DNA of 24,000 bases from Dehalococcoidia bacterium (GTDB taxonomy: Bacteria; Chloroflexota; Dehalococcoidia; Lucifugimonadales; CAZENU01), in the NCBI GenBank assembly GCA_965117035.1, contig OZ220748.1:390339-414338 (forward strand). The letters are read 5' to 3'. A program made the translations under genes and the position numbers. The notes under the pieces are model-generated. The model had not been told where the DNA came from. It saw only the letters and a list, made by a program, of their open reading frames with translations, and made no database searches. Below are positions 7,751-15,548 of the stretch, piece by piece. Each line of letters starts with the position of its first letter. Position 1 is the stretch's first letter.

Positions 7751-9301
7751 ATGGTGTTTCTGAACGTCTGGGTGGTCTCTGTCTTCGCGGCCTACTTCGC
7801 GGTGCTCATCGGCATCGCGGTGGTGCGGTCACGGCAGATGCGCGAGATGCAGGACTACGTGCTCGGCAGCCGGCGGCTGGGCGCGGCGACCTCCGCGCTG
7901 AGCGCGAGCTCGTCGGCGGTCAGCAGCGGCTCGATGCTGGTGGTGCCGGCGCTGGCGTTCGCGGACGGCGGGATGACGCTGTGGCTGGCGGGGAGCGTCT
8001 TCCTGGGAGCGATGCTCTCCTGGACTGTGTTGCCGCGGCGGCTGCGACGCTACACGTTCGCCGCCGGGAACTCGCTCACGATCTCGGAGTTTCTCGAGAG
8101 GCGGTTCGACGATCGGACGGGCGTCCTGAGGACGCTGGTGGCGGCGGTGACGCTGTTCTTCGTGATCGTCTACATCTCGTCCGGGCTGGTGGGCGGCTCG
8201 AAGCTGCTCGAGGAGACGTTCGGCCTGGAGCCCAACACGGGAATCGTCGTGACGCTGGTCGCGGTGGCGTCGTACACGCTGGTCGGCGGGTTCCTGGCGG
8301 TGTCGCGCACCGACGTCTTCCAGTCGCTCATCATGCTGGCCTCGTTCACCATCATCCCCGCCATGCTGCTGCACGTGACGGACAACCCGGTGACGGAGAT
8401 GGTGTCGGGCCGGTCGGACTTCCTGGACCCGTTCTCCGACGCGACTGGGGGCGCGCTGTCGTGGGTCTACGTGGCGTCGCTTCCGGGCTGGGCGCTGGGG
8501 GCGTTCGGCTCCCTGCGGGTGCTGCAGCGGTACATGGCGATCGAGGACGAGGCGCGGATTCCGGCGAGCCGCAACATAGGCGTCGCCTGGCTGTTCCTGA
8601 TCACCGTGTTCGGGCTGCTGATAGGCTGGGCGGCCCGCCCGGCGCTGGAGCAGGCGGGAATGCTGGCAGCGGCAGCGGACCCCGAGAAAGTGTACTTCGT
8701 GGTGACCGAGGCGTTCTTCCATCCGCTGGCGGCGGGCGTGCTGCTGTGCGGTGTCGTCGCGGCGGTGATGAGCACGGCAGACTCGCAGTTGCTGCTGGCC
8801 TCGGCGGTGGCCGCCGACGACATGCCCCTGTCGCGACGGTTGGCCCAGGCCATCCGGACGCGGTCGCGCATCTGGTTCGGGCGCATACTGCTGGTCGCGA
8901 TAGGGCTGGTCGCGATGGCTATCGCCATGTACAGGCCGGACTCGATCCTGGCGCTGGTGGCGCACGCCTTCGGCGGGATGGGCGCGGCGTTCGGCCCGTG
9001 CATCGTCCTGTCGCTGTACTGGCGGCGGTTCAACTACTGGGGCGCGCTGTCAGGAGTAGTGGCCGGGACGGCCGTGTCGTCGGTCTGGTGTTTCGCCGAG
9101 GGTGGCGTGTGGGACGTCATGGTGGGCACTCCGGGATTCGCGGCCGGCCTGGTCGCCGCGGTGGCGGCGACGCTGCTGACGCCCGCGCCGCCGTCGTCGG
9201 TCGTGGCGCTGTTCGACGAGGTGAATTCTCCGAAGCCGGGAGGGAGCCCCGGAGCGGCGCGCTACCCGGAGGGTCCTTCGTCGCGGGCCGCGCGGATGTA
9301 G
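7751..9301 (+). CDS. putP: Sodium/solute symporter (SSS family), PutP-like sodium/proline symporter
   Basis: Colinear with E. coli PutP as I recall it: DYVLGSRRLG versus DYILGGRSLG, and LVGGFLAVSRTDVFQSLIM versus IGGFLAVSWTDTVQASLM. GAAFGP is shared near the C-terminus. ATG at 7751 is preceded by AAGGAGGAGG (7731-7740). The 188-codon ORF-track extension upstream is non-membrane junk. Confidence 0.85.
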   Translation: MVFLNVWVVSVFAAYFAVLIGIAVVRSRQMREMQDYVLGSRRLGAATSALSASSSAVSSGSMLVVPALAFADGGMTLWLAGSVFLGAMLSWTVLPRRLRRYTFAAGNSLTISEFLERRFDDRTGVLRTLVAAVTLFFVIVYISSGLVGGSKLLEETFGLEPNTGIVVTLVAVASYTLVGGFLAVSRTDVFQSLIMLASFTIIPAMLLHVTDNPVTEMVSGRSDFLDPFSDATGGALSWVYVASLPGWALGAFGSLRVLQRYMAIEDEARIPASRNIGVAWLFLITVFGLLIGWAARPALEQAGMLAAAADPEKVYFVVTEAFFHPLAAGVLLCGVVAAVMSTADSQLLLASAVAADDMPLSRRLAQAIRTRSRIWFGRILLVAIGLVAMAIAMYRPDSILALVAHAFGGMGAAFGPCIVLSLYWRRFNYWGALSGVVAGTAVSSVWCFAEGGVWDVMVGTPGFAAGLVAAVAATLLTPAPPSSVVALFDEVNSPKPGGSPGAARYPEGPSSRAARM

Positions 9302-10443
9302 AGTGCCGTGGGCAGCGCGACGATGGCCACGGCCGCGCTGACGAAGAAGGGGGCGCCGAGTCCCGTGGCCATCTCGGCCGTCAGGCCGGAGACCCCCGAC
9401 CCTACGACGACGCCCAGCGAGTATACGGCGTAGAAGATGCCGAAGGCGATGCCCCTGCGGCGGCTGGACGCGACCTCCGAGACGGTCGTGCCCAGCGACG
9501 GGAACAGCAGGCCGAAGCCGAGGCCGAAGACGACCATCGCTCCCAGGGCAGGGACGGTCGCTCCGTCGGACGCGGCCAGGACGACGCCGCTACCGCAGAG
9601 GAGCGCGAGTCCCAGGAGCACCGCGAGCCTGCGCGATACCTGGTCGACCGCCCGGTGCGCCGGGCTTCCCATCACGACGGTCGCCACGAGCGAGAATGTC
9701 GCGAAGGCGATGCCGGAGATGCGGGGAGCGGCCCCGGCTGCCTCCAGGGCAATCGGGAGGTGGTTGATGAGGGCGCCGATGCAGAACGTCATCGCGATGA
9801 GCGCGCAGAACACCGGCGCCAGCCGGCGCCACATCTCCGTCGATGGGCGTGTGCCGTCCGCGTCCGGACGTTCCGTGGGTGCGACCGACGCTCCGGGCAC
9901 GCGCACGAGGAACACGACGGCGGCGACGAGCATCAGCGTGCCGCTCGTGGCGAACACGGCCCCGAAGTCCCAGATGTCCCGGATCAACGCGGCGGCCGGA
10001 GGGCCTATGACTGCGGAGACGGCGATGAGGGCGCCGGTCATGCCGATGGAGCGGGTCTGGTGTCGGCTCGCGCGGTCGCCGAGCATCGCGAACGCGCCGG
10101 GCGCCAGCACGCCCGCGGCCAGGCCGTGGAACGCGCGGAGCGCGAGTAGCTGGCCCGGCGTCGACACGAACGCGTAGAGGTAGAGCGACACCGCGGTCAG
10201 CAGCATCCCGGCGGCGACCAGTCGCCTGCGGTCCAGCCTGTCGAGCAGCGCGCCCGCGCCGACGTTGCCGATGAGGTTGGACGCCGAGTACATCCCGACG
10301 ATGGCGCCGCCCATCGACGCCGACGCCCCGAGCGACTTCGCGTAGGCCGAGATCACGGGCAACTGCATGAACAGGTCGAGGAACGCGACGAGCACAACGG
10401 CCCGGATGGCCCAGGTAGTGGATAGTGGATAGTGGATAGTCAA
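9262..10443 (-). CDS. MFS transporter
   Basis: Twelve-TM-like hydrophobic profile. The MFS loop motif is LLDRLDRRRL (the G-x-L-x-D-R-x-G-R-R region) after TM2. The 3' end overlaps putP by 40 nt (convergent). The start is unresolved: TTG 10443 or GTG 10530, and both lie in or upstream of the heptamer repeat array; GTG 10395 would truncate TM1. Confidence 0.8.
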   Translation of the reverse strand: MTIHYPLSTTWAIRAVVLVAFLDLFMQLPVISAYAKSLGASASMGGAIVGMYSASNLIGNVGAGALLDRLDRRRLVAAGMLLTAVSLYLYAFVSTPGQLLALRAFHGLAAGVLAPGAFAMLGDRASRHQTRSIGMTGALIAVSAVIGPPAAALIRDIWDFGAVFATSGTLMLVAAVVFLVRVPGASVAPTERPDADGTRPSTEMWRRLAPVFCALIAMTFCIGALINHLPIALEAAGAAPRISGIAFATFSLVATVVMGSPAHRAVDQVSRRLAVLLGLALLCGSGVVLAASDGATVPALGAMVVFGLGFGLLFPSLGTTVSEVASSRRRGIAFGIFYAVYSLGVVVGSGVSGLTAEMATGLGAPFFVSAAVAIVALPTALYIRAARDEGPSG

Positions 10444-10477
10444 GATAGTGGATAGTGAATAGTGGATAGTTGGGAAG
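10417..10477. repeat. Heptamer array (AGTGGAT)n, left arm of the inverted repeat flanking the four-helix-bundle gene
   Basis: AGTGGAT occurs three times perfectly (10417-10437), followed by degenerate units (AGTCAAG, AGTGGAT, AGTGAAT, AGTGGAT, AGTTGGG). The array abuts the TAA stop of the 10478-10831 gene. It is complementary to the array at 10826-10878. Confidence 0.9.
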
Positions 10478-10831
10478 TTAGGGGCGGAGGGATTTGACGA
10501 GGCCGGTGAGGAGTCTGCCGGTTTCGTCACAGAGTTTCAACGCATCGTCTGAGGTTGGTTTGGGCAAGAGATCCAAGTTGCGGCACAGCGTCAGGAGCGT
10601 CTCCAATTCTGCCAGCGAGCCTCGTGCGACGCCGAGGAAATGGAGGAACTCCCCGGTCCCGTGCCTGGCCTGACCCTCCGCGATGTTTGCAGGAATGGAC
10701 ACTGCCGCCCGCGTCAACTGCGACCGGATTCCATACGTCTCTTCCTTCGGTAACAGCCGCGCACAGCGGTAGATCGCTTCGGCGAGGCTCATCGACTTCT
10801 GCCAGGCGACGAGCTCCCCGTAACTATTCAC
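10478..10831 (-). CDS. Four-helix-bundle protein (23S rRNA intervening-sequence protein family, PF05635/TIGR02436; same fold family as DGR Avd)
   Basis: 117 aa with the family hallmarks ELVAWQKSMSLAEAIY, YGIRSQLTRAAVSIPANIAEGQAR and FLHFLGVARGSLAELETLL. The GTG start at 10831 lies inside a repeat unit (GTGAATAGT). Confidence 0.9.
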   Translation of the reverse strand: MNSYGELVAWQKSMSLAEAIYRCARLLPKEETYGIRSQLTRAAVSIPANIAEGQARHGTGEFLHFLGVARGSLAELETLLTLCRNLDLLPKPTSDDALKLCDETGRLLTGLVKSLRP

Positions 10832-10878
10832 TATCCACTATCCACTATCCACTATCCCACTACTCCCACTACTCCCCC
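10826..10878. repeat. Heptamer array (ATCCACT)n, right arm of the inverted repeat, then CCCACTACT x2
   Basis: CACTATCCACTATCCACTATCCACTATCC is the reverse complement of the left-arm units. At least 24 nt of perfect complementarity exist with 10417-10440. The array ends 1 nt from the stop (10879) of the upstream gene. Confidence 0.9.
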
Positions 10879-11364
10879 CTACATGAAATGGCTGTAGTGG
10901 CCGACGATTATCTCCATCTGCATCTGGTCCCAGGCCTCGCGCTTTTCGGTGATCTTCTGCTCCATGATGCCGACGTCGCCGACGAAGTGGTCGTTCCAGA
11001 GGCCGTCGCCGAACTGCATGGCGTCGACGAGGCGTCCGAAGCCCTCGAGGATCATGCCGTTGGCGCGCTGCAGGTCGATGATGGACAGGCAGACGCCCTC
11101 GTACTCGGCGTCGTCTGGAGGCTCGGTCAGGTAGTAGACGCGCATCTCGACGCCGCTTGAGGCTGGCTTCGTATTGTGGAACAGGACGCTCATGGCGGGA
11201 CCGCCGGTGGTCTCCATCCTCTCCCAGTCGCAGTCCTCGTCCTGCAGGTACCGCTCCAGCTCCGCCTCGTCCCTGCGCTTCATCAAGTGCATCGTCCCGA
11301 AGAACGCGGCGACGATGGCCAGTGCGAACAGGACTATTCCGACAACTACGTAGACTACGAGCAC
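10879..11364 (-). CDS. Hypothetical single-pass membrane-anchored protein (161 aa)
   Basis: GTG at 11364 is preceded by GGAGAGGAG at good spacing. The N-terminal TM helix is LVVYVVVGIVLFALAIVAAFF, followed by an acidic soluble domain. I recognise no family. The ORF-track extension to 11481 is Arg/Pro-rich. Confidence 0.65.
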   Translation of the reverse strand: MLVVYVVVGIVLFALAIVAAFFGTMHLMKRRDEAELERYLQDEDCDWERMETTGGPAMSVLFHNTKPASSGVEMRVYYLTEPPDDAEYEGVCLSIIDLQRANGMILEGFGRLVDAMQFGDGLWNDHFVGDVGIMEQKITEKREAWDQMQMEIIVGHYSHFM

Positions 11365-11624
11365 GGCAGTGTCTCCTCTCCGCAGGACTCCGCCGCGGGC
11401 CGGGGGTCTGCGCCGACGCCGCGGGGGCGTTCCAATGGTACCACCCGGCGGGGCGACGGCGTTTGTCGCGGCCCGCCGCAATTGTGGATGTCTGGCCCTC
11501 GGAATTGTGGCGCGTGGCGCGCCGACCGACGAGGCGATGCGTTCGGAGCCGCTTCCGCGACCCCACGTGGGAAACAGGCGCGGCAGACGGCAGTGTGTGC
11601 CTTCGGCCCATCCGGGCGCCGCAG

Positions 11625-12902: not shown

Positions 12903-14051
12903 CTACTGGTCCACTACCGAGCCGTCGACGTTGAGCCGGGTGCTTACCTCTCGCGGCGTCGGCGGGTACTTTTCCTGGGCGTCGTCTGCGAGCTCGATGC
13001 CGATGCCCGGCGCGTCCGGGACGACCAGGAAGCCGTCCTCCAGTTCCAGCGGCGTCTTGACGATCTCGCTCTTTGGCGGCTCGTGCTCGCCGGCGGGGTA
13101 CTCCTGGATGGCGAAGTTGGGGATGCACGCCGCAAGCTGGAGGCAGGCCGCGGTGCTGACCGGGCTGAGCGGGTTGTGGGGCACGACGCCGACGTAGTGC
13201 GCCTCGGCGACGGCCGCGATCTTCTTGCTGTGCGTGAGGCCGCCGGCCAGGCAGACGTCGGGCCGGACGTACTGGACGGCGCCGCGGCTGAGCAGCATCT
13301 GGAACTCGTGCACCGTGTGAAAGCGCTCCCCGGTGGCTATGGGGATCGAGATGTTCTGGGCCACGAGCCCCATCGCGTCGAAGTTGTCGGGTAGGATCGG
13401 GTCCTCGTAGAAGAGGGGGTGATACGGCTCGATGCCTTTCGCCAGCGTTATCGCCTCCGCCGGGGTCAGGCGGCGGTGGATTTCGATGCACAAATCGACG
13501 TCGTCGCCGGCCGCCTCGCGGTAGGCGGCCACGGCCTCGATGGCGTCTCGCATCTTGTCCGCGTGGGTCTTGAAGAAGGGCACCTCGGTCGGCTCGTCGA
13601 GGAACGGAGTCAGGTGGCCGACCGCCGTGAACCCGGCCTCCCTGGCGTCCTTCACGCCCTGCACGAGCTTCTCCCTGGTGTCGCCGAAGACGTGGTAGTA
13701 GACGCGCGCCCTGTCCCTCGTCTTGCCGCCCATTAGCTGGTAGACGGGGACGCCGAAGTGCTTTCCGGCGATGTCCCACAGGGCTATGTCGAGGGCGCTG
13801 ATCGCGCCCATGATGGCGGCGCCGCGGAAATGGCTGAACCTGTACATGTACTGCCAGTGGTGCTCGATCCGCAGCGGGTCCTCGCCGATGAGGTAGCGTC
13901 CGAGCTTGTCGATGGCCGCCTGCGACGCCTCGAGGAAGCCCCACGCGCCAGACTCGCCCACACCCGTTATCCCAGCGTCGGTGTGGACCTTCGCGAACAG
14001 GTACCTGTCGACGGGTATCGACTCGACTGCGGTGATCTTCATGGGCGGCAT
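12903..14051 (-). CDS. Enolase-superfamily acid-sugar dehydratase, D-galactonate dehydratase (DgoD)-like
   Basis: Colinear with E. coli DgoD as I recall it: MKIT start, GxGE, ALWDIAGK. The catalytic and metal residues are conserved in context: DLCIEIHRR (D/H), FYEDP (E), ATGERF (E), PHNPLSPV (H). The start is ATG 14051 (MPPMKIT) or ATG 14042 (MKIT). The ORF-track extension to 14906 is antisense junk. Confidence 0.88.
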   Translation of the reverse strand: MPPMKITAVESIPVDRYLFAKVHTDAGITGVGESGAWGFLEASQAAIDKLGRYLIGEDPLRIEHHWQYMYRFSHFRGAAIMGAISALDIALWDIAGKHFGVPVYQLMGGKTRDRARVYYHVFGDTREKLVQGVKDAREAGFTAVGHLTPFLDEPTEVPFFKTHADKMRDAIEAVAAYREAAGDDVDLCIEIHRRLTPAEAITLAKGIEPYHPLFYEDPILPDNFDAMGLVAQNISIPIATGERFHTVHEFQMLLSRGAVQYVRPDVCLAGGLTHSKKIAAVAEAHYVGVVPHNPLSPVSTAACLQLAACIPNFAIQEYPAGEHEPPKSEIVKTPLELEDGFLVVPDAPGIGIELADDAQEKYPPTPREVSTRLNVDGSVVDQ

Positions 14052-14052
14052 T

Positions 14053-14086
14053 ATAGTGGATAGTGAATAGTGGATAGTTGGGGAGT
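14053..14086. repeat. Solo copy of the heptamer-cassette end
   Basis: ATAGTGGATAGTGAATAGTGGATAGTTGGG (14053-14082) is 30/30 identical to 10445-10474, and 33/34 identical through 14086. It lies in the 117-bp divergent intergenic region and directly abuts the dehydratase start. Confidence 0.9.
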
Positions 14087-14168
14087 GAATCGCGGCGTTG
14101 ACAGCTTGGGGGCGAAAACCTAGAGTACGGGCTCCGAACATCCCATAGTCGAGAGGCGAGGTACAAAC

Positions 14169-15548
14169 ATGGCAGGCGCAAACGGGGAGCCGTTGCGGCT
14201 CTGGAACTGGCGCGAGCTGTTCGTCGACCACTACCTGGTCGACCGGATGGAGGGCGCGTCGCTGGTGCTGCACGAGCCGCGGCCGGCCGGCACGGCGATC
14301 GAGTACGACCGGCCGTGGGAGGGCCGAGGCTCGGCGTACATCACGGTGCTGGAGGACGACGGAGTCTACCGGATGTACTACCGCGGCGTCCCCGGCGAGG
14401 GGCCGCAGGTGACCTGCTACGCGGAGAGCGACGACGGCATCGAATGGACGAAGCCGGACCTGGGGCTGTTCGAGGTAGGCGGCACGCGGGACAACAACGT
14501 GATCCTGACGCCGGAGACGGGCGGCGCAACCACGCACAACTTCTCGCCGATGCTGGACAGGCGCCCGGGAGTCCCCGAGGCGGAGCAGTACAAGGCGCTC
14601 GGCGGATCGCGCAGGACGGGACTGATTGCATTCGCCTCCGCCGACGCGGTCACGTGGACGAAGCTCAGGGAGGAGCCGGTAATCACCGAGGGCGCGTTCG
14701 ACTCGCAGAACGTATGCTTCTGGTCGTGGTCGGAGAACCTGTACCTGTGCTACTTCAGGATATTCACGGACGGCGTCCGCACGGTGGCCCGGACGACGTC
14801 GAAGGACTTCAGGACGTGGTCGGAGCCGGTCGAGATGGAGTACGGGGAAGCGCCGAAGGAGCAGCTGTACACGAACGGCACTACGCCGTACTTCAGGGCG
14901 CCGCACATCTACGTGGCGCTGCCGGGACGCTTCTGGCCGAAACGCAGGGCGCTGAGCGACGAGGATGAGGCCGCGCTGGACGTGTGGGCCGGGTCGGGGG
15001 CCGCCGACGACTGCTCGGACGCCATCTTCATGACAACGCGGGGCGGCAACCGCTACGACCGCACGTTCATGGAGAGCTTCGTGCGCCCGGGGATGGACAA
15101 TCGGAACTGGGTGTCACGGGCCAACTACCCGGCGCAGGGCGTCGTCCCGACGGGCGAGACCGAGATGTCGATCTACGTCGGCCGCGGTATGGGCCAGGAG
15201 TCGGCGTCGCTGGAGCGCCTAGCGCTGAGGACGGACGGCTTCTCGTCGCTGCACGGCGGCTACGGCGGGGGCGAGATGCTGACGCGCCACTTCTGGTTCG
15301 GCGGCAGCGAGCTCCTGGTCAACTACTCGACGTCTGCCGCGGGAAACGTCCGGGTCGAAGTGCACGACGAGTCCGGAGCGCCCATCGAGGGCTTCACGCT
15401 CGACGACTGCGACCCGATCATCGGCGACGACGTCGACCGGGCGGTGACATGGAACGGCAGCAAGGACGTGAGCGGCACGGCGAAGCGGCCGATCAGGCTC
15501 CGCTTCGCGCTGAAGGACGCGGACCTGTACTCGCTGCGCTTCCGGTAG
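14169..15548 (+). CDS. Hypothetical protein, probable beta-propeller glycoside-hydrolase-like fold with C-terminal beta-sandwich
   Basis: 459 aa. Repeated W/Y-rich beta-strand motifs (YRMYYRG, DGIEWTKPDLGLFE, NNVIL, DAVTWTK, FRTWSEP) suggest a GH32/43/130-type propeller. The C-terminal segment VNYSTSAAGNVRVEVHDESGAPIEGFTLDDC...IRLRFALKDADLYSLRF is typical of the appended jelly-roll. The family assignment was not verified. Confidence 0.7.
   Translation: MAGANGEPLRLWNWRELFVDHYLVDRMEGASLVLHEPRPAGTAIEYDRPWEGRGSAYITVLEDDGVYRMYYRGVPGEGPQVTCYAESDDGIEWTKPDLGLFEVGGTRDNNVILTPETGGATTHNFSPMLDRRPGVPEAEQYKALGGSRRTGLIAFASADAVTWTKLREEPVITEGAFDSQNVCFWSWSENLYLCYFRIFTDGVRTVARTTSKDFRTWSEPVEMEYGEAPKEQLYTNGTTPYFRAPHIYVALPGRFWPKRRALSDEDEAALDVWAGSGAADDCSDAIFMTTRGGNRYDRTFMESFVRPGMDNRNWVSRANYPAQGVVPTGETEMSIYVGRGMGQESASLERLALRTDGFSSLHGGYGGGEMLTRHFWFGGSELLVNYSTSAAGNVRVEVHDESGAPIEGFTLDDCDPIIGDDVDRAVTWNGSKDVSGTAKRPIRLRFALKDADLYSLRFR

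Follow-up and report, generated by a model that had tools for sequence, protein, structure and literature searches.

Heptameric tandem repeats have been known from cyanobacteria for decades, yet no account of their origin or function has gained acceptance, while the open reading frames (ORFs) found within 23S rRNA intervening sequences (IVSs), first described in 1993, encode a protein whose structure has been solved and whose role is unknown. In the 23S rRNA IVS of Coxiella, tandem GACAGAT heptamers (2-3 copies, depending on the strain) lie in an arm of a 28-bp stem that is cut by RNase III, around an S23p (PF05635) ORF (PMC4990558). Genes of the PF05635 family have also been noted in cas loci (PMC3936711), near diversity-generating retroelements (DGRs; PMC10053308) and in 16S and 23S insertions of candidate phyla radiation (CPR) bacteria (PMC11270868), with their function always given as unknown. 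Heptameric simple repeats are over-represented in many bacteria, and the GGGAATC repeat of Xanthomonas forms 186 arrays and 70 convergent pairs in a genome, in a study that is silent on the protein family (PMC4692102). The heptamer arrays of Beggiatoaceae (TAACTGA) and of cyanobacteria have been described as unexplained, and arrays located in 5' untranslated regions (UTRs) have been proposed as translational regulators (PMC4679880). The present study concerns a stretch of 24,000 nt (the window) from a Dehalococcoidia bacterium of the Chloroflexota (assembly GCA_965117035.1, contig OZ220748.1, positions 390,339 to 414,338), in which a PF05635 gene encoding a four-helix-bundle (4HB) protein lies between two inverted arrays of the heptamer AGTGGAT. 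This feature is probably a self-contained gene cassette of the rRNA-IVS type located outside rRNA, in which the 4HB gene is combined with a pair of arrays of its own heptamer in inverted orientation. A gene and its repeats that are inherited together across phyla, as a single oriented unit, join two puzzles, that of the heptamer repeats and that of the IVS ORFs.

All genes here are on the minus strand; read in the direction of the genes, the AGTGGAT arm therefore comes first (upstream) and the ATCCACT arm second (downstream). An earlier note, made from the letters of this DNA, had described a 4HB gene bracketed by inverted AGTGGAT/ATCCACT arrays between two same-strand protein genes. This description was confirmed by Pfam, NCBIfam, Tandem Repeats Finder (TRF) and an inverted-repeat search, and the cassette occupies the entire gap between a gene for a 161-aa protein and a gene for a major facilitator superfamily (MFS) transporter, all on the minus strand. 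Allowing up to two mismatches, (AGTGGAT)2 occurs nine times in the window (0.02 occurrences expected from shuffles), and these occurrences are confined to three array sites. Period-7 arrays were found by TRF at 10416-10470 (7.6 copies), 10823-10862 (5.6 copies) and 14053-14078 (3.7 copies), and a period-9 array at 10849-10876 forms part of the upstream arm. Read on the gene strand, the upstream arm is GGGAGTAGT GGGAGTAGT GGGAT (AGTGGAT)3 AGTGAAT AGT; it begins 2-3 nt past the stop codon of the 161-aa gene and includes the GTG start of the 4HB gene, which falls within a repeat unit (AGTGAAT) as the earlier note had stated. The downstream arm is made of two juxtaposed modules (10444-10470 and 10416-10443). 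The arms are inverted with respect to each other over 28 nt at 96% complementarity, and their longest perfect match (10416-10440 with 10830-10854) measures 25 nt, in agreement with the previous count of at least 24 nt. The additional claim that both arrays abut the gene without a spacer held for the 5' side; on the 3' side, the 7 nt CTTCCCA follow the stop codon. Folding of 10400-10900 as RNA of the transcribed (minus) strand produced the long closing stem that had been anticipated, with 34 consecutive pairs (z = -6.15 relative to shuffles) and the GTG start codon of the 4HB gene at its top. The GC content is ~0.70-0.73 in the flanking genes and 0.55-0.63 across the cassette.

The window 4HB protein matches the Pfam family PF05635 ('23S rRNA-intervening sequence protein'; E 6e-35, 120 bits, cutoff 33.8) and the NCBIfam family TIGR02436 ('four helix bundle protein'; E 3e-35, 120.8 bits, cutoff 24). 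The only other Pfam match was a weak one to PF22296 (bAvd; 28 bits, cutoff 40), and the Avd equivalog model gave 25.8 bits against a cutoff of 80. A homologue in the PDB, identified from sequence similarity, is 2GSC (E 1e-22, 5 chains), the XCC0516 protein of Xanthomonas campestris, which is also the only solved homologue. The motif RxxxSxxxNxxE is present in the window protein (RAAVSIPANIAE) as R41-AAV-S45-IPA-N49-IA-E52, and the columns of R41, S45, N49 and E52 are invariant in the homologue alignment, which contains many invariant polar residues; a GxxRxxxSxxxNxxE motif has been noted for Xcc0516 homologues (PMC3936711).

The same architecture was observed throughout the family. The protein-side sample comprised 80 independent metagenomic loci encoding 4HB homologues (43-75% identity). 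Period-7 arrays were found upstream of the gene in 65 of these loci, downstream in 68, and on both sides in 59. The flanks of the 4HB genes contained 148 period-7 arrays in 26 kb and the remainder of these loci 105 in 287 kb, a ~15-fold difference in density, which is the enrichment around four-helix-bundle genes that the earlier note had put up for testing. Unit pairing was scored in 58 of the both-sided loci, which contained 43 distinct heptamer units. The upstream unit was the reverse complement of the downstream unit (allowing one mismatch) in 48 of the 58 loci, compared with ~5 expected, and the G-rich arm was located upstream on the coding strand in 53. The inverted repeat linking one flank to the other exceeded the 95th percentile of controls in 64 of 78 loci, with a median length of 31 nt. 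Furthermore, heptamer distance was correlated with protein identity (Spearman -0.27, p 6e-35), and the heptamer was identical in all six pairs of 4HB proteins that shared at least 80% identity. The fixed polarity, together with arms that are inverted and not direct, rules out chance placement between pre-existing repeats. Gene and arms are thus inherited together as one oriented unit, found again and again across the family, and the arms keep their complementarity despite hypervariable copy numbers.

Genes neighbouring the cassette were found on the cassette strand in 35 of 48 cases upstream and 40 of 57 cases downstream. In the Nostoc edaphicum plasmid pNe_5 (L217:2400-2900), nrdB and nrdA are separated by a cassette that has (GGGAGTA)8 and (CCCTACT)5 as its arms and is on the strand opposite to both genes, so co-orientation is not obligatory. 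Annotated plasmids of Calothrix and Nostoc contain cassettes with GGGTGTA and GGGAGTA units, the arrays of which are unannotated in the records, and one metagenomic 4HB cassette uses GGGACTG units, which are reverse-complementary to CCCCAGT, the unit of the short tandemly repeated repetitive (STRR) sequence STRR1. Gene-less arrays present in the 4HB loci were within one mismatch of the local cassette unit in 16 of 29 cases, where 1.5 were expected. The candidate role of the upstream arm as a barrier of stops in all three frames ((AGTGGAT)n has TAG in every frame, while (ATCCACT)n is open) was rejected, as no general asymmetry was observed (28/65 vs. 31/67). Duplex energies did not discriminate between sense and antisense flanks, and mismatched-partner controls were almost as stable.

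From the array side, an exact search with (AGTGGAT)3 in one genome per species returned at least 120 loci. The matches listed span Cyanobacteriota, Chloroflexota, Planctomycetota, Verrucomicrobiota, Acidobacteriota, Bacteroidota, CPR bacteria and one methanogen, and most of them are solo arrays or convergent hairpins of the form (AGTGGAT)n-loop-(ATCCACT)n. A 4HB gene was present within the fetched block in 3 of the 120 matches listed, each directly flanked by arrays. Gene-less AGTGGAT/ATCCACT hairpins of Thiotrichaceae (L004:1900-2130 and L100:3240-3440) contain a nested palindromic element in the loop (GGACTAGAGGCTT.AGCCGGTG...CCGGCTAAAGCCTCTAGTCC), and heptamer arrays appear from such cases to host other small repeats.

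In the relatives of the source bacterium, the gene order MR_MLE, PhyH, 161-aa gene, 4HB, MFS is common to a clade of metagenome-assembled genomes, with the cassette at the same site in 10 syntenic loci (L121, L208-L214). The earlier note had allowed that orthologous loci might show the gene without repeats, or repeats without defined boundaries. Neither was the case: every gene-bearing relative also has arrays, and homology between relatives ends 2-3 nt beyond the 161-aa gene's stop codon and restarts at the MFS start. Array length was different in each relative compared. Two relatives (L121 and L208) contain extra fragments of the 4HB 3' end after the complete gene (53 nt with 92% and 63 nt with 89% identity to the window gene, respectively), each followed by its own array and falling between two downstream modules, and a third (L209) contains a duplicated 4HB 5' fragment upstream of the gene. 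Judging from these fragments, the two-module downstream arm of the window looks like the residue after loss of a 4HB 3' fragment, and its outer module is probably the leftover arm of a second cassette.

Within the window clade, the 4HB gene is under purifying selection, with a ratio of nonsynonymous to synonymous divergence (dN/dS) of 0.07-0.12. Its dS values of 0.73-1.30 are 3-5 times higher than those of the 161-aa gene (0.15-0.33) and the MFS gene (0.18-0.33) in the same genome pairs, and its GC content at third codon positions is 0.75, compared with 0.90-0.92 in the neighbouring genes. Two relatives with a 161-aa protein 83-87% identical to that of the window (L202 and L207) have neither the 4HB gene nor arrays or remnants at the junction. 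These cassette-free junctions extend over L202:4486-6848 and L207:4486-7457, corresponding to the junction between 10879 and 10416 in the window; one relative contains a TIR (CAP12-PCTIR)/DUF6978/DUF1828 island and a duplicated 161-aa gene there, and the other contains AAA_15/AAA_21 fragments and a truncated MFS gene. The site is thus a variable junction at which an entire clade has kept the cassette, and what the cassette contains is turning over or mutating more rapidly than the neighbouring genes. No target-site duplication is visible at the boundaries of the window cassette.

Cassettes of this type also occur within coding genes. The +2 frame was free of stops across the whole 4HB gene in 23 of the 80 loci, compared with 1.8% in codon-shuffled controls, while the +1 frame was open in 1 of 80. 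In ~15 loci the open +2 frame is joined to a long upstream host ORF, and in these embedded cassettes the reading frame of the host is open through the 4HB +2 frame and both arrays. According to Pfam, the hosts include leucyl-tRNA synthetase (LeuRS), MmeI/Eco57I-type methyltransferases and other DNA methylases. The editing domain of the LeuRS host is broken at profile position 145 of 185 and the anticodon-binding domain follows in the same frame, while the N6_Mtase domain of the MmeI/Eco57I-type hosts is split near position 43-46. Across phyla, the nearest relatives of the window 4HB protein (75-78% identity) are among those encoded by embedded cassettes, and embedded cassettes have weaker arms than intergenic ones do (median score 31 vs. 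46.5, p 0.007). These cases show that genes, an essential one among them, can harbour the cassette unit. One host methylase has homologues in two classes, an uninterrupted class of ~860 aa and an interrupted class of ~1000 aa, and a methylase lacking the insert (P0216) is 94-96% identical to the interrupted host of L215. Alignment of the filled allele (L215:4860-5500) with an empty one (L218:3640-3860) places a ~465-nt cassette where the latter has a 42-57-nt linker (ELEQVSDGEDKGKF). By this comparison, the pair shows that a sister cassette was recently gained or lost. The earlier suggestion that the unit had moved or recombined is thus upheld indirectly, by a solo array of the window that is absent from L121, by the gene remnants, by the other cargo at the junction and by the filled and empty sister alleles.

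The best reading of these comparisons is that the cassette is gained and lost by recombination. Gain, loss and replacement would occur by recombination at or near the arrays, without a dedicated transposase; the replaced linker and the tandem remnants point to recombination at the arrays, or template switching there, rather than to transposition. The length of the arms would change by replication slippage, and their complementarity would be kept up in the DNA itself, through a process such as template switching within a strand from one arm to the other, because G.U-compatible changes are not in excess on the mRNA strand. No sigma-70-like promoter or intrinsic terminator was found inside the cassette on its own strand, and because no promoter was found there, the cassette is likely to be transcribed by read-through from the upstream 161-aa gene. 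In the read-through transcript, the arms would pair into a stem of at least 34 bp that buries the 4HB start codon. Such a stem is an expected substrate of RNase III, by analogy with what has been shown for rRNA IVSs, and its cleavage would release the 4HB message and part the two host messages. The most likely activity of the 4HB protein is binding of nucleic acid or of a partner protein, because it is a homologue of the pentameric Avd/XCC0516 scaffold.

Several results weigh against a self-contained cassette that is gained and lost in this manner. No 4HB gene lies within the fetched block in 117 of the 120 (AGTGGAT)3 matches listed, so arrays can persist, and perhaps spread, without the gene. 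Among the relatives examined there is no clean empty site for the locus of the window itself, since the cassette-free relatives hold other insertions. The filled/empty pair of L215 and L218 shows no visible target-site duplication, and the replacement of a linker without such a duplication is unlike classic transposition; the pair could also have arisen by allelic recombination of the host gene, with the cassette itself immobile. Similarly, the higher dS of the 4HB gene could be explained by a raised local mutation rate or a different codon bias, without replacement. Finally, arm mismatches showed no G.U wobble bias to the mRNA strand (67 sense-wobble vs. 69 antisense-wobble), and this symmetric spectrum gives no indication of selection on the sense RNA stem in particular. 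The IVS-like mobile cassette of the earlier note is partly supported, in its layout, array enrichment, boundaries and signs of movement or recombination; its description as non-autonomous is an assumption, and the filled/empty pair does not resemble classic transposition.

There are several potential alternatives to an IVS-type cassette. The main one, although somewhat doubtful, is a cognate system of protein and repeat comparable to REPIN-RAYT (repetitive extragenic palindromes forming hairpins and their associated tyrosine transposases), in which the 4HB protein acts in trans on its own heptamer arrays by binding, protecting, propagating or generating them, with the cassette as the master copy and the solo arrays and hairpins as dispersed non-coding progeny. 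The gene is flanked by inverted repeat copies as RAYT genes are, heptamer and protein co-vary, the cassette heptamer recurs in gene-less arrays of its own loci well beyond expectation, and the protein is under strong purifying selection with many invariant polar residues. In addition, the homologue Avd is a nucleic-acid-handling cofactor. The homology of Avd and PF05635 is documented (PMC10053308), and gene-less arrays and convergent hairpins far outnumber the genes, as the array counts of Xanthomonas illustrate (PMC4692102). However, common descent and local recombination would also be expected to make the heptamer co-vary with the protein and be shared locally, and divergent proteins (L008 and L017) carry the AGTGGAT unit of the window. 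No catalytic activity, nuclease motif or recombinase motif is known for the PF05635 family. It is unlikely that the locus is instead a domesticated regulatory module, in which the arms and the stem uncouple or tune how the 161-aa and MFS genes are expressed, be it by RNA processing, by translational control at an array-borne MFS start or by on/off switching through 7-nt slippage, and the 4HB gene is incidental cargo. Consistent with such a role, the cassette is kept at the same site across the clade, the MFS frame runs through the outer array with a candidate TTG start inside it, the array copy number changes from relative to relative, and embedded cassettes cluster in genes for DNA methylases, which are well-known sites of repeat-driven phase variation. 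A role in translational regulation has been put forward for heptamer arrays in 5' UTRs (PMC4679880). The architecture nevertheless recurs in rRNA, within ORFs and in gaps between unrelated genes, in either orientation relative to its neighbours, which argues against a host function specific to this locus; moreover, close relatives manage without a cassette at this junction, and it is the ORF that is conserved, not the arms alone.

The two remaining explanations have very low probability. One is coincidence, in which the arrays are generic slippage-prone repeats and the 4HB gene lies between two of them by chance. The over-representation of heptameric simple repeats in many bacteria (PMC4692102), and the fact that most AGTGGAT arrays among the matches listed have no nearby 4HB gene, are compatible with this. 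It is contradicted by the arrays on both sides of 59 of the 80 independent genes, by the complementarity of the arms in 48 of 58 loci and their fixed polarity in 53, and by the co-inheritance of heptamer and protein; in addition, insertion into a pre-existing simple array would leave direct, not inverted, flanks. Even less credible is a DGR in which the 4HB protein serves as the accessory protein Avd and the arrays as template or variable repeats. Such a role could be proposed from the weak bAvd match and from the frequency of PF05635 genes near DGRs (PMC10053308), but both Avd-type scores are below their cutoffs, the 24-kb window contains no reverse transcriptase, the repeats are tandem heptamers and not a pair of template and variable repeats, and there were no phage matches.

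Coordinates of the cassette, its neighbours and related features are given in Table 1. The gene-less second copy pointed out in the earlier note is genuine: a block of 30 nt (CCCAACTATCCACTATTCACTATCCACTAT) is identical between the solo array and the downstream arm's inner module with its adjoining spacer, and the junction is the same. The solo array is missing from the syntenic relative L121, in which unrelated sequence (~56 nt) lies between the conserved flanks. The solo array is flanked by the MR_MLE start codon (by a TATAAT conserved in L121) and a TTGACA-17-TAGAGT site (window 14040-14130); this promoter-like site is conserved and belongs to the divergent gene at 14169. The solo array may affect MR_MLE expression. 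A conserved junction motif (CCCCAACT) beside arrays of the window and of a Syntrophomonas contig was dropped as a candidate, as it occurs in 6 of 157 arrays and the flanks show just decaying periodicity.

Table 1. Positions of the cassette components, neighbouring genes and solo array in the window, and of cassettes embedded in frame in genes at other loci
Feature	Position	Strand	Remarks
Upstream (5') arm	10823..10876	-	TRF, inverted repeat, fold; length different in every relative compared
4HB gene	10478..10831	-	GTG start, 117 aa; PF05635 / TIGR02436
Spacer, 7 nt, CTTCCCA on gene strand	10471..10477	-	Between TAA stop and downstream arm; read from sequence
Downstream (3') arm, inner module ACTATCCACTATTCACTATCCACTATC	10444..10470	-	With spacer, 30-nt block common to solo array
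Downstream arm, outer module TTGACT (ATCCACT)3 A	10416..10443	-	25-nt perfect complement to 10830-10854
161-aa hypothetical protein gene	10879..11364	-	Directly upstream of cassette; TAG stop abuts cassette
MFS transporter gene	9262..10443	-	Directly downstream of cassette; Pfam MFS_1 E 7e-56
Gene-less (solo) array	14053..14086	-	AGTGGAT heptamer; directly upstream of MR_MLE gene start
In-frame embedded cassettes	L156:1770-4745; L127:1431-5843; L150:1908-6347; L148:1-2610; L215:2696-5722
In-frame embedded cassettes, further loci	L122, L124, L129, L132, L134, L143

The protein encoded directly upstream of the cassette had no match in Pfam, NCBIfam or PADLOC. It is lineage-restricted, with 78 homologues (P0138-P0215), and has a predicted N-terminal hydrophobic segment. 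One of these homologues is annotated from an assembly of the sponge Geodia barretti, which hints at a sponge-associated source bacterium. A 23-nt tandem duplication (TGTCCGGCCCCCGCAATTGTGGA, 2 copies) is present upstream of this gene at 11464-11510. On the other side of the cassette, the MFS reading frame passes through the outer module of the downstream arm. The window has no ATG where the MFS gene of L121 starts (ATG ACT...; window 10398-10443), and an in-frame TTG (10443-10441) in the outer array aligns with that ATG. Based on this alignment, the TTG at 10443 may serve as the MFS start, in which case the array would encode MFS residues 2-9; an alternative is an in-frame GTG ~15 codons downstream of the TTG, in an AVVLV segment. 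Other genes in the window encode ABC transporters, an SSF symporter, PhyH, an MR_MLE enzyme, ROK, TauE, an amidohydrolase and AspRS. No Rfam family reached its gathering threshold anywhere in the window, and no rRNA is present. The large ORFs of the window contain no reverse transcriptase, transposase or integrase domain, the PADLOC search returned nothing, and no phage homologues were found.

It can be proposed, tentatively, that PF05635 genes and their cognate inverted heptamer arrays make up a widespread and unrecognised class of selfish element, which occurs in rRNA, in intergenic regions and in frame within genes, whose gene-less derivatives are the STRR-type heptamers and whose protein acts on its own repeats. 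The unit has been found in intergenic gaps, in rRNA and in the reading frames of methylase and LeuRS genes, with filled and empty alleles in near-identical hosts. If the selfish-element proposal were true, the alternative frame of the 4HB gene would be kept open so that the host protein is translated through the cassette. This family-wide generalisation of gene and arrays appears not to have been described before: full-text searches of an incomplete library found no paper stating a general link of PF05635 genes to heptamer arrays. The questions now posed concern recognition by the 4HB protein of its own heptamer and processing of the stem. A suitable setting may be X. campestris, in which the GGGAATC array listed as repeat 15 (622956-622983) is separated by 6 nt from bccP (XCC0517) and extends over the XCC0516 start codon (PMC4692102, supplementary file 2), so that XCC0516 has the layout of the window gene in published data. 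A cassette directly beside accB (bccP) of a model organism makes this species a convenient experimental system. The cassettes also have practical implications: they are unannotated in public records, where gene calls at embedded cassettes either fuse ~165 extra, foreign residues into the methylase or drop the host gene, and their arrays break short-read assemblies.

Comparison with known systems delimits the position of the locus further. Diversity-generating retroelements share with it a homologous pentameric four-helix-bundle fold in the accessory protein Avd (2GSC, 4DWL), but the window has no reverse transcriptase and no pair of template and variable repeats, and the Avd model scores far below its cutoff. 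Integron cassettes and MITEs (miniature inverted-repeat transposable elements) likewise represent small, apparently promoter-less ORF or non-coding units that are bounded by hairpin-forming repeats at variable host-gene junctions; however, the window cassette lacks an integrase, a single 3' site of the attC type, a transposase and a target-site duplication, and its repeats are located on both sides of the ORF. The REPIN-RAYT system resembles it in having a single gene flanked by inverted copies of a short repeat, gene-less inverted doublets and a repeat family matched to the protein lineage. RAYTs are, in contrast, homologues of HUH/Y1 (IS200/IS605-like) transposases while PF05635 proteins are small four-helix bundles, and REPIN repeats are single palindromes while the repeats of the window are tandem 7-nt arrays. 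The window locus is not part of a DGR, insertion sequence (IS) element, MITE, integron or RAYT system.

Two further comparisons are with the bacterial heptameric repeats and with the ORF-bearing IVSs. The former (STRR sequences, Xanthomonas GGGAATC, Nostoc GGGGATT and Beggiatoaceae TAACTGA) are tandem 7-nt units, mostly intergenic and near the starts or stops of genes, which vary in length between relatives and often form convergent inverted pairs (PMC4692102, PMC4679880). The arrays of the window are STRR-like, with head-to-tail 7-nt units and a length that varies between relatives. The literature searched treats such repeats as stand-alone elements, whereas here the repeats serve as arms of a gene cassette, with a heptamer that co-varies with the enclosed protein. 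As for the IVSs, the window cassette is not located in rRNA and hence is not a member of the rRNA IVS class, and excision by RNase III, demonstrated for rRNA IVSs, is a prediction in its case. Its heptamer is AGTGGAT instead of the GACAGAT of Coxiella, it lies between protein genes, and its ORF is under purifying selection while that of Coxiella is seemingly decaying. The layout is nonetheless that of the ORF-bearing 23S rRNA IVSs of Leptospira and Coxiella burnetii, as the earlier note had argued for a window without rRNA: a PF05635 ORF lies within a hairpin whose stem is formed by terminal inverted repeats and, as in the Coxiella element, the heptamer arm varies in copy number and the stem is of similar extent (28 bp in Coxiella, compared with a 25-nt perfect match and 34 bp in the predicted fold of the window cassette).

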